Below, in pieces: positions 11,306 through 19,560 of a DNA stretch of 64,000 nucleotides. The notes under the pieces are model-generated. The model was not told the origin of the DNA, ran no database searches, and saw only the letters and a list, made by a program, of their open reading frames with translations. The first letter of the stretch is position 1. Each line of letters opens with the position of its first letter. Source of the DNA: Rubripirellula sp. GTDB taxonomy: Bacteria; Planctomycetota; Planctomycetia; Pirellulales; Pirellulaceae. The position numbers were made by a program, and so were the translations under genes. Location of the stretch: contig OZ244207.1 of the NCBI GenBank assembly GCA_965216875.1, positions 1,248,001 to 1,312,000 of the forward strand, written 5' to 3'.

Positions 11306-11380
11306 GGTGCAGAGAGCGTGTGGTGGATGGTAGGGAATCAAGATTGTAGTCCCGAAAACGCCCAGCTGTGTTCAATCGGT

Positions 11381-11538
11381 GAGCCGCGATCGCGGCAGCG
11401 GCCGGGCCCCTGTTCGAATGATTCCCGTAGCTACGCTCGCCAGAGCGTGGGGCGTCACAGCGTGACCAACCAAAACGATCCACACTGCGCCGCCATAGAT
11501 CTCGACGCACGGAATGTGTCATGCGGAGCATGGCCTAC
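11381..11538. repeat. Mixed REP-like repeat cluster
   Basis: GAGCCGCGATCGCG..CGGCCGGGCCC; CCGTAGCTACGCTCGCCAGAGCGTGG; GTCATGCGGAGCATGGCCTAC (11518-11538, a GTAG-hairpin REP). Confidence 0.8.
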
Positions 11539-12395
11539 TTTTCGATTGGCACGCCGTCTTCCTTGCCCCACTGCGACCAACCGCGAACGTAGACCTTGAC
11601 TTTGGGATATCCAGCGAGCTCTAGAGCGAAAGCCTCGACCGAGGCTCGACCACCCGACTGTCAGTAACAGACCGTGGTCTGTTCGGGCTCAATCCGGTAT
11701 TCGCGAAAGAGTGCGTCGAGCTGTTTGCGAGACTTGAATCGGCCGTCGTCGGCAATCAAGTGCGTCCACTCAAGGTGAGTCGACTTGGGCACACGCCCCG
11801 CTTTGAATTCGCCATCACTGCGAGTGTCGACGACATGGAATTCATCACTCGTGTGCGATGCGTTGACTTCATCCAAATCGGCGACACGATCCGTTTGGAA
11901 TTCGACGACAAATTCGGTCGCTGCAACGGTTGGGGTTTTCGGTTCGATTCGTAGGTTCGCCTTGGTCCAATGATCCCAGCCACCATCGAGCAGTGCGACG
12001 TTCTTGACACCGACGTATTTCAGTAGCCACCAGATGCGCGCCGAGTTTGAGATGTTGTCGCCATAAACCACGACGCGACTGGTGGAGGTCACGCCAATTT
12101 CACCAACAAGTTTGGACCAATTTGCCGAATCGTTGAGCCCGTTTGGAGAAGTTGCCAAGCCTTTCCAGACGCCGATGTCAACTCGATGGGCACCAGGGAC
12201 ATGCCCCTCGCGGTAGTTATCCTCACTACGAACATCGAGCACAACCAAGTCGCCCGAACCGAGTGACTGAGAAAGTTGCTGAACCGATACGAGCATTTTT
12301 CCTCGGTCTTGTGAAGGTGCTTGCGCAAACGTCAGCCCCTGGGTGAAGAGCAAAGTCACAGCGGCAAAGGGAAAAAGTAGTTGATGTGGATTCAT
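11535..12395 (-). CDS. Exported tandem-domain rhodanese/sulfurtransferase, probable selenoprotein (UGA=Sec at 11661-11663)
   Basis: Signal peptide and two rhodanese domains (VLDVRS..YREGHVPGA; SARIWWLL; VVDTRS..GRVP). Reading through the UGA gives CY-U-QSGGRASVEAFALELAGYPKVKVYVRGWSQWGKEDGVPIEK*, the canonical rhodanese active-site loop and C-terminal signature. A hairpin follows the UGA. Confidence 0.85.
11627..11660 (-). promoter_or_regulatory. Bacterial SECIS-like hairpin
   Basis: The minus strand after the UGA reads CAGTCGGGTGGTCG-AGCCTC-GGTC-GAGGCT-TTCG: a perfect 6-bp stem with a G-first GGUC loop 20 nt from the UGA. Confidence 0.7.
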
Positions 12396-12817
12396 GTCGA
12401 AGCCGGAGTTCGTTGGGCGTTCCGATGGGATGATCTCTGTCGCACCACACGTTTCCATTGGAGTTTGGGCTTGCTGAAGTTTATCAACATCCCGAGCGTC
12501 AGACCGGTGACTTTGAGATAATTGAGCATCTTTCCAATGTCTTGGTCGCCGATCGTTTTGATCGTCTTCGTGTCTACAACGATGGCGTCAAAACAGATCA
12601 GGTCAGGGATGAAGTCGCCGACCTTCACGGACTTGTATTCGACAGGGTAGTGTTGCTGTTGGACGTGACGGACATTTCGGAGCCCAAACTCGACAACGAG
12701 AGCGTTCTCGTAGATCTTTTCGTGGAAGCCGTGCCCGAGTTCGTTCAGCACCTCCATCGAACTTCCGATGATCTGGTGCGTTTCGTTGCGATAGAGTTCC
12801 TCTTGATCAGCCATCAT
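12392..12817 (-). CDS. GxxExxY protein (PD-(D/E)xK nuclease superfamily)
   Basis: ELGHGFHEKIYENAL (GxxExxY), FIPDLICFDAIVVDTK, NYLK.TGLTLGMLINF; ATG at 12817 or 12814. Confidence 0.9.
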   Translation of the reverse strand: MMADQEELYRNETHQIIGSSMEVLNELGHGFHEKIYENALVVEFGLRNVRHVQQQHYPVEYKSVKVGDFIPDLICFDAIVVDTKTIKTIGDQDIGKMLNYLKVTGLTLGMLINFSKPKLQWKRVVRQRSSHRNAQRTPAST

Positions 12818-12950
12818 TGCCCCTTTGAGTAGCTGGTTCGCAGATGCGGCCAAGACCGCGTTCACCTGAATTGTAGCCGGACATTGCAGCGTCGTTAGAC
12901 GCACGGCTCGAGGACTTGTCTTTGCCCGCAGGTAGGACCAGTGGTGGTGG

Positions 12951-13790
12951 ACCGCAGATGGACGCAAATGAACGCAGATGAATGCGATGCCGAGGGGGAG
13001 TGAATCGAGCAAGGAGGTCGATAAGAGGATCGCCGTTCGCACCCTTCTTGGCAGTTTTTTTGACACCATCTGCGTGTATCTGAGTTCATTTGCGGTCTGG
13101 TGTCTCGTTAGACGGACAGGTGTTCAACCGCAGATAGACGCAAATGAACGCAGATAAAATGCGAAGCCGAGAGGGAGTGAATCGAGCAAGGAATTCGATG
13201 AAAGGATCGCCGTTCGCACCCTTCTTGACAGTTTTTTTGACACCATCTGCGTGTATCTGAGTTCATTTGCGGTCTGGTGTCTCGTTAGACGGACAGGTGT
13301 TCAACCGCAGATAGACGCAAATGAACGCAGATAAAATGCGAAGCCGAGAGGGAGTGAATCGAGCAAGGAATTCGATGAAAGGATCGTCGTTCGCGTCCTT
13401 CTTGGCAGTTTCTTTGACACCATCTGCGTGCATCTGAGTTCATCTGCGGTCTGGTGTCTCGTTGGAGCGAAGGTCGGTGGACCGCAGATAGACGCAGATT
13501 AACGCAGATGAATGTGAAGCCGAGAGGGAGTGAATCGAGCAAGGAATTCGATGAAACGATCGCCGTTCGTGCCCTTATTGGTAGTTTTTTGACACCATCT
13601 GCGTGCATCTGAGTTCATCTGCGGTCCCGGTGTCTCGTTAGACCGACAGTTGGTGAACCGCAGATGGACGCAAATGGATGCGATGCCGAGAGGAATTGAA
13701 TCGAACCAAGAGATCGAGAGCAAACGCATTTCATGTTCTCATTCTTGAATCATTCGATTTGATCTGCGTCTATCTGAGTTCATCAGCGGT
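12951..13790. repeat. Tandem array of five ~176-177-bp units, each bounded by ~30-bp inverted arms of 3x10-bp repeats
   Basis: Units start at 12951, 13127, 13304, 13481 and 13657 (last degenerate). Left arm ACCGCAGATR-GACGCAAATG-AACGCAGATR; right arm CATCTGCGTG-YATCTGAGTT-CATYTGCGGT. Confidence 0.95.
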
Positions 13791-13838
13791 CGCACTTCTC
13801 GCCAGTTCATCAGTCCAGCTCCCTGCAAGTGACTGACT

Positions 13839-19186: not shown

Positions 19187-19560
19187 TGGAGGCGGCGGGA
19201 ATCGAACCCGCGTCCCGCGATGCGTCCACGATGGCGTCTACGTGTGTAGTCGAGCTATTTTGGCTTCCGAGGAAACCGATTCACTCACCACGGCGCTGCC
19301 CGACAGGCTCCGCCGCTCGCTAACTCGAATCTTGGTTTAGCCGGCCGCGTCTCGAGTAGGACGGTCGACGATCCAGAATTGCGACGGACATTCAGGCGAC
19401 TCTGGCGATCCCCATCAGTCCGGGCTACCTGTTCTTAGGCGGCCAGCTGAAGATTTTCATCTGCAACTAAAAGTTTCGATCAGATTTTTACGTGGCCTTC
19501 TGATCAACCACGACACGCAACCATCGCTTCATGTCATCCGGTCGAATCCAGATCGCCCCC
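19187..19560 (-). ncRNA. ssrA: tmRNA
   Basis: 5' end GGGGGCGATCTGGATTCGAC; 3' end GGACGCGGGTTCGATTCCCGCCGCCTCCA; internal tag ORF ADENLQLAA* at 19464-19435. Confidence 0.96.

Follow-up and report, generated by a model that had tools for sequence, protein, structure and literature searches.

Does the TGA that closes an open reading frame on the minus strand of a Rubripirellula sp. contig (OZ244207.1) end a gene, or does it encode the catalytic residue of a longer protein? The frame lies in a 64,000-nucleotide stretch of DNA (the window), and under translation table 11 it occupies 11661-12458 (-), starting at an upstream ATG and finishing with the residues ...TTVCY. The original prediction, which gave no strand, held that the frame continues beyond TTVCY for another 41 codons. 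Translation of the minus strand with TGA read as selenocysteine (Sec, U) reproduced this: the full coding sequence, 11535..12395 (-), encodes 286 residues with a single U at position 245, after which 41 codons remain (QSGGRASVEAFA...VPIEK) before the true stop, a TAG at 11535-11537 (-). The in-frame TGA, codon 245, lies at 11661..11663 (-) in the column of the catalytic cysteine and presumably encodes Sec. A plus-strand reading of 11535..12395 was rejected because it contains many stops. As had been anticipated, gene callers shorten the protein. The window's gene is stored in a public protein collection as a 244-aa protein, and of 120 listed database homologues, 43 likewise stop precisely at the Sec site. 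We conclude that the locus is an intact single gene for a two-domain rhodanese in which the UGA at the catalytic position is very likely read as selenocysteine. This reading corrects a systematic mis-annotation, in which these 43 homologues and the gene itself are cut just before the catalytic residue.

The stored 244-aa protein is also what would be expected of a pseudogene, a nonsense mutation or a sequencing error, and the codons found at the site in homologues bear directly on that explanation. The site was covered in 164 of 172 homologous loci, where the codon was TGA in 69, TGC in 75 and TGT in 20; TAA, TAG or another residue occurred in none of the 164. Removing 8 duplicates left 156 non-redundant loci (62 TGA, 94 Cys), including the window's own. 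These divide into 42 TGA and 2 Cys loci at 45% identity or above, 7 and 16 at 40-45%, 0 and 24 at 35-40%, and 13 and 52 below 35%. Close orthologues, which the original prediction had proposed to compare, therefore carry TGA and not TGC or TGT in 42 of 44 non-redundant loci. The reading frame is kept to its normal end, with the stop falling 40-43 codons past the TGA in 55 of the 62 non-redundant TGA loci, and identity to the query across 41 Sec orthologues is higher after the UGA (76%) than before it (47%). The TGA is also unchanged in contigs of two sequencing runs, X1 (identical across the site) and X6. The single X6 contig comes from a different strain and has 31 differences over 1176 nt, yet retains both the TGA and the hairpin described below; of the 26 changes that fall inside the gene, 20 are synonymous, among them the two that lie downstream of the TGA. 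In run X5 coverage stops short of the UGA, and a run guessed to be RNA covers 218 nt of the 5' part of the gene, with the UGA outside. Recurrence of TGA in 62 non-redundant loci, the preserved frame, the conservation beyond the UGA and the mostly synonymous changes between strains leave the pseudogene or error explanation barely credible, and we regard it as effectively refuted.

If the UGA is decoded as Sec, the genome should be able to make and insert it, and a search for selA, selB, selC and selD, as had been suggested, found all four genes above curated cut-offs in the 8.26 Mb, single-contig, 99% complete genome assembly (G000). The genes selB, selA and selD are clustered at C1:325-331 kb, and a tRNA-Sec with a UCA anticodon lies at C1:7784438-7784530 (-). 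Inspected by eye, the eighth acceptor pair of this tRNA is a U-C mismatch, and the tRNA may fold as 7/6 rather than 8/5. SelD forms the C-terminal part of a 749-codon frame, C1:325171-327417 (-), with a long N-terminal extension that we take to resemble a flavoprotein oxidoreductase domain.

A SECIS-like hairpin, also suggested at the outset as something to look for, lies at 11630..11647 (-). According to our own folding script it has a 7-bp stem, a free energy of -10.0 kcal/mol and a GGUC loop that begins 20 nt past the UGA. By the same script, rather than by bSECISearch, the hairpin lies within all four bSECIS constraints given in the accessible text of PMC13188914: a loop of 3-9 nt with a G in the first two loop positions, a distance of 16-37 nt from the UGA, a stem of 4-16 bp and an energy of at most -7.5 kcal/mol. 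Because 129 of 3619 long TGA-ending frames of the genome have a hairpin at -9 kcal/mol or better, and 485 of 3619 at -5 kcal/mol or better, the hairpin on its own is modest evidence. Comparison among loci with at least 40% identity is more specific, with a qualifying hairpin present in 45 of 48 TGA loci and 4 of 17 Cys loci. Across the 49 TGA loci that reach this identity, the hairpin codons are nearly invariant (GCC in 47/47, TCG in 49/49, GTC in 48/49 and GAG in 49/49), whereas the nearby Ala at +12 is encoded by four codons (21/12/9/7) and flanking conserved residues are also codon-variable. Where the residues A-S-V are present, a single codon string encodes them in 46 of 47 TGA loci and in 2 of 13 Cys loci. 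The rows behind these codon counts are related by descent and therefore do not represent independent events; even so, the frozen hairpin codons still contrast with adjacent codons of the same genes.

Our reading of the UGA as Sec draws on the restriction of the site to TGA or Cys codons, on a frozen hairpin that TGA forms alone possess and on the presence of the Sec genes. In the process that we propose, SelB would bind the GGUC hairpin 20 nt downstream and bring Sec-tRNA to the UGA, and by analogy with known Sec decoding it is almost certain that selenocysteine is inserted in this way. The Sec genes, the TGA codons of orthologues, the SECIS-like hairpin and the conservation beyond the UGA together bear out the predicted 286-aa Sec enzyme. 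Insertion of cysteine, tryptophan or another residue, through an altered code or a leaky stop, would also yield a full-length protein. The inserted residue cannot be read from the sequence, and cysteine is tolerated at this position in 95 loci. However, TGA ends ordinary genes of this genome, including selA and a MoeB-like gene, and the tRNA-Sec with its UCA anticodon is accompanied by a full-length SelB. Moreover, the frozen hairpin is confined to TGA forms, and selA was found in all 25 of the named genomes with a TGA form that were examined. In these genomes selB was found in 24 of 25. The corresponding numbers for genomes with a Cys form, 17/25 for selA and 15/25 for selB, come from 25 genomes picked from 52, mostly from the planctomycete clade, that are metagenome-assembled and of completeness not established. 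Read-through with a residue other than Sec is very improbable against this evidence.

The protein has two stretches that match Pfam PF00581: an N-terminal, non-catalytic rhodanese domain at residues 37-145 (11961..12287 (-)), which contains no cysteine, and a C-terminal catalytic domain (11562..11873 (-)) with the TGA inside it. An AlphaFold model calculated from a 50-sequence alignment, with C substituted for U, had a mean pLDDT of 90.2 and a pTM of 0.85, and its best Foldseek matches were two-domain rhodaneses and mercaptopyruvate sulfurtransferases (TM 0.77-0.81). Together, the two PF00581 stretches and this fold identify a two-domain rhodanese, the only one found in the genome by Pfam search; five other rhodanese hits are single domains, alone or fused. 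The C-terminal domain has its best sequence matches in the C-terminal domains of 1uar, 3p3a and 3hzu. U245 occupies the column of the catalytic cysteine of Thermus rhodanese (1uar), E. coli SseA (1urh) and the Frondihabitans protein 8k55, just where the original prediction had placed the UGA. In a gapless alignment, the active-site loop U-Q-S-G-G-R (11646..11663 (-)) pairs with C-R-I-A-E-R of 1uar and C-G-S-G-V-T of 1urh, and is identical to neither. The loop has the six residues of the sulfur type, unlike the longer C-X5-R loop of phosphatases and arsenate reductases, a length rule given in the accessible text of PMC6272796. A C-terminal signature V.VY.GSW.EW had also been predicted; the signature is present, as the variant VKVYVRGWSQW and not in that exact form. 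In NCBIfam the best match is 3-mercaptopyruvate sulfurtransferase SseA (NF008557), at 121.3 bits against a cut-off of 250, and lower scores were obtained for ExtH (NF040901; 66.2 against 200), NF041203 (59.3 against 115) and NF045694 (31.9 against 805), so that no NCBIfam model claims this Sec rhodanese at its curated cut-off. Weak TAL-effector matches covering ~37 residues were treated as spurious.

The N terminus indicates where the enzyme would act. Residues 1-24 (12324..12395 (-)) form a predicted signal peptide of the general secretory pathway, with probable cleavage after T-F-A. The hydrophobic core, the T-F-A and conservation in the family agree with the signal peptide claimed earlier, as judged by a heuristic that scores the uncharged core at 2.25, but a basic residue is missing from the n-region of this member, which has neither Lys nor Arg. 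Over residues 1-30 the pLDDT of the model is ~50 or lower. A signal-like segment is detected by a hydrophobicity heuristic in 39 of the 43 listed homologues truncated at the site and in 71 of the other 77, and 23 of these 71 also have a lipobox-like motif. Sec forms from Chloroflexota and SAR324 start directly at the rhodanese domain, and two from Acidobacteriota have a signal-like start. These sequence features make it likely that the signal peptide carries the protein across the inner membrane.

Once the protein is across the inner membrane, the Sec245 selenolate in U-Q-S-G-G-R would attack its sulfur donor (thiosulfate, polysulfide or a persulfide) at the outer sulfur. The resulting enzyme-Se-S intermediate would then pass that sulfur on, with sulfite, thiols and cyanide as examples of acceptors. 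The Se-S step is modelled on the persulfide cycle of rhodaneses described in the accessible text of PMC6272796, and from this chemistry sulfur transfer through the Sec245 selenolate appears quite probable. In the cell envelope, such an enzyme would probably serve to detoxify reactive sulfur or to mobilise it. In general, Sec is a nucleophile that stays ionised and is re-reduced more easily than cysteine; here, selenium could preserve the ionised state of the nucleophile and ease its re-reduction under the oxidising conditions of the periplasm. Taken as a whole, we favour a probably periplasmic Sec rhodanese predicted to shuttle sulfane sulfur, and consider this explanation reasonably likely. 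Several observations weigh against it, namely the n-region without a basic residue, the patchiness of the family, the existence of a Cys form in the same genus, the mercaptopyruvate sulfurtransferase score far below its NCBIfam cut-off and a loop unlike those of characterised enzymes.

A different role for selenium is suggested by a second cysteine, C243 (11667..11669 (-)), which forms a C-Y-U motif on the strand preceding the loop (residues E240-244 in the model). C243 and U245 could constitute a redox pair, and the protein would then be a thiol-dependent reductase of polysulfide, thiosulfate or selenium/tellurium species, or a selenium carrier. A second cysteine at position -2 (36 loci) or -1 (12 loci) is present in 48 of 62 TGA loci and 6 of 94 Cys loci, CxU and UxxxxU forms of rhodanese have been catalogued, and the weak match to ExtH is to a rhodanese of a selenite operon (66 bits against a cut-off of 200). 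However, the association of Sec with the second cysteine is due to shared ancestry: independent pairs on the tree do not support co-evolution of the two (median p = 1). The cysteine is at -2 in one subclade and at -1 in another, it is absent from the P-Y-U and Chloroflexota Sec forms, and C243 is located on a core strand. We consider a redox pair unlikely, and sulfane sulfur transfer remains our preferred reading.

The tree behind this comparison is a quick, unrooted one of 126 rows, calculated with the site masked, with distant Cys rows thinned by about half and short-coverage rows dropped. A single branch (86 rows, SH-aLRT 96) unites the exported, mainly planctomycete proteins and contains a Sec-dominated subclade of 54 rows with support of 89, or 98 in a 53-row tree. 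Cys forms, including one from another genome of the same genus, are scattered inside this subclade and are likely reversions, judging from their placement. Another part of the exported branch contains a second small Sec group with the motif P-Y-U (L055, L154), and the tree requires at least 16 Sec/Cys changes. Forcing the Sec-dominated subclade together with the SAR202-type Sec forms was rejected by an AU test (p = 0.0019), for a group that was picked after the first tree was seen. Sec in the exported branch may thus represent a separate gain or, as the tree is unrooted, an ancient Sec with many losses. A more specific scenario is that Sec arose in an exported two-domain rhodanese of Planctomycetota, independently of the cytoplasmic SAR202-type forms, and was paired there with a resolving cysteine (C-Y-U or C-U). 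The product would be a periplasmic reductase of polysulfide or other reactive chalcogen species that uses a Se-S redox pair and belongs to an envelope selenoproteome; we put this forward as a doubtful, tentative proposal.

Gene context was surveyed for a substrate or partner. The gene directly upstream, of the GxxExxY family, has a stop codon that overlaps the ATG of the rhodanese gene, and downstream on the same strand lies a sulfatase gene. With alternative frames of the rhodanese gene itself excluded from the clustering, no conserved operon was found across loci, many of them on short contigs: no neighbour family recurs except sulfatases, at five other loci plus the window, and DUF1501, at four loci. 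Both families are abundant in these genomes; G000 alone has 88 sulfatase-motif frames, and a position drawn at random has an 8.4% chance of falling within 4 kb of one. When 71 of 102 candidate flanking frames were scanned against Pfam, the families found were scattered and unrelated, with a sulfatase immediately downstream in 3 loci. Because the neighbours are not the same at different loci, the context points to no particular substrate or partner. A promoter scan returned 0 sites against 1.0 expected, and terminator-like matches were at chance level.

The surroundings of the gene have some features of their own. The GxxExxY gene (TIGR04256 / PD-(D/E)XK; window 12392-12815 (-)) is preceded at 12945-13791 by an array of 177-nt tandem repeats (four to five copies) that contain inverted repeats, and parts of this array recur ~5-11 times in the genome. 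The GxxExxY gene and the array look like a repeat-associated mobile unit, which was not found beside the rhodanese gene at other loci. Between the rhodanese and sulfatase genes, window 11373-11455 contains short REP-like repeats that match ~100-240 places in the genome and show very high contig depth.

In some relatives, the rhodanese is fused to another domain. A signal peptide followed by a class I methyltransferase and a rhodanese is found within one subclade at five TGA loci, L155 (2302-3807), L043, L144, L145 and L046, and a methyltransferase-rhodanese fusion is also seen in P0115 and, as a Cys form with a different methyltransferase, in L052; Pfam was run on L155, L052 and P0115. These fusions, and the presence of EanB structures among the Foldseek matches of the model, raise the possibility that the protein performs an EanB-like sulfur- or selenium-inserting step on a small molecule together with an exported methyltransferase. 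However, most members of the family stand alone, and the neighbour survey found no methyltransferase gene beside the unfused ones. Fusion partners also vary, and include an isochorismatase-like domain, a domain with CxxCH that has no match in Pfam and a 3-keto-disaccharide hydrolase. EanB itself is longer, at about 430-460 aa, and only 23-24% identical. Fused forms of more than 500 aa numbered two in a weak search. The partners are too varied to name a pathway, and an EanB-like activity is improbable in comparison with sulfane sulfur transfer by a free-standing enzyme.

The statement in the original prediction that Sec-containing rhodanese-like proteins are known in bacteria is accurate, as two-domain Sec forms of COG2897 have been catalogued since 2005. 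In the accessible parts of the respective papers, a Sec-containing COG2897 rhodanese-related sulfurtransferase (SseA) was predicted from the Sargasso Sea in 2005 (PMC1088965), a Sec form of 'Sulfurtransferase COG2897' was predicted in Olavius symbionts (PMC1976440), COG2897 Sec sulfurtransferases are listed in PMC9312934, a rhodanese-like selenoprotein family is listed in PMC5029168, and form 4, with the motif UxxG, is one of five Sec rhodanese forms in PMC13188914. The protein described here is likewise a two-domain rhodanese of the SseA type that carries Sec in a U-x-x-G motif (U-Q-S-G in this case) and has widespread Cys homologues. Since a UxxG motif in a PF00581/COG2897 protein is the motif-level definition of form 4, the gene belongs to an already predicted kind, by likeness of motif and description, and it shows no new recoding mechanism. 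The form 4 representatives MCY3690685.1 and MQG53192.1 are not listed in the Sec two-domain clusters that were looked up. In the literature searched, from which subscription papers were largely missing, Sec rhodaneses appear as predictions and no biochemical study was found. Published accounts of form 4 and COG2897 Sec rhodaneses, as far as their text was accessible, do not mention the exported planctomycete branch, nor did the searched literature yield a paper on it, although supplements could list it. It is well supported that the gene belongs to the predicted COG2897 Sec rhodaneses and adds to them an unlisted, probably exported and mainly planctomycete lineage, most members of which have a second cysteine beside the Sec.

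More distant two-domain rhodaneses with a TGA in this column occur in Chloroflexota/SAR202, SAR324 and Acidobacteriota (L085, L086, L088, L089, L110, L097, L100, L080, L090, L075, L081, L099 and L109), and those that were looked up are stored truncated. They may be the catalogued form, the sole hint being the resemblance of accession prefixes (MQF86685.1 and MQG53192.1). The Sec forms of SAR202, other Chloroflexota and SAR324 share 27-33% identity with the present protein and have no signal peptide, and the hairpin loop of SAR202-type forms begins at 17 nt rather than 20 nt.

The Cys-dependent rhodaneses 1uar, Azotobacter RhdA (1e0c), SseA (1urh) and the bovine enzyme share the fold (TM 0.77-0.81), the C-terminal catalytic residue, the six-residue loop and, according to the accessible text of PMC6272796, the persulfide mechanism. 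They are 22-31% identical to the present protein, which differs in its Sec, its U-Q-S-G-G-R loop and its N-terminal signal-like extension. Like this protein, Geobacter ExtH (NF040901), E. coli YnjE (3ipo, 2wlr) and PspE are envelope-located proteins with a rhodanese fold, YnjE and PspE being periplasmic, but ExtH (49 kDa) and YnjE (>400 aa) are larger. ExtH is a rhodanese-like lipoprotein by the title of a reference cited in PMC13510729, and a Geobacter periplasmic selenoenzyme that acts on polysulfide is clustered with it (PMC13510729, PMC5877670, accessible parts). The conserved cytochrome cluster of ExtH, described in the accessible part of PMC5877670, contrasts with the unconserved neighbours found here. 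Two further Sec rhodaneses have Sec in or near the loop. NF041203 (rhodanese_LYCAU; CxU, form 3) has a nearby cysteine and is a single domain of 126 positions, and TsoB (NF045694; UxxxxU, form 5) has a second Sec nearby and is a DsbD-like fusion.

Sec machinery and selenocysteine use in planctomycetes have already been published (PMC4807772); Table S9 of that paper gives 13 planctomycete selenoprotein candidates, none of them a rhodanese, and its other supplements might list one. Sec use is common in this order: selA exceeds its cut-off in 135 of 401 sampled genomes and is uneven by family at E <= 1e-60, from 0 of 69 genomes in f15 to 14 of 14 in f6. The two-domain rhodanese family was found in 28 of the same 401 genomes, in 3 of them with TGA. 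A genome of the same genus (G002; locus L024/L065) has a Cys form, 52% identical to the Sec form of G000, and retains both selA and selB. Selenium is therefore not essential to the job of the family, and the Sec/Cys pair within one genus makes the contribution of selenium to a sulfurtransferase directly testable.

Other RNA genes of G000 include two large tRNA arrays at C1:591000-632638, which account for ~48 of the 100 tRNA/tmRNA calls of the genome. ARAGORN also reports a 'tRNA-Pyl' with a CUA anticodon at C1:3282034-3282109 (-), which may be a degenerate tRNA. Within the window itself, a tmRNA gene at 19187-19560 (-) encodes the tag ADENLQLAA.
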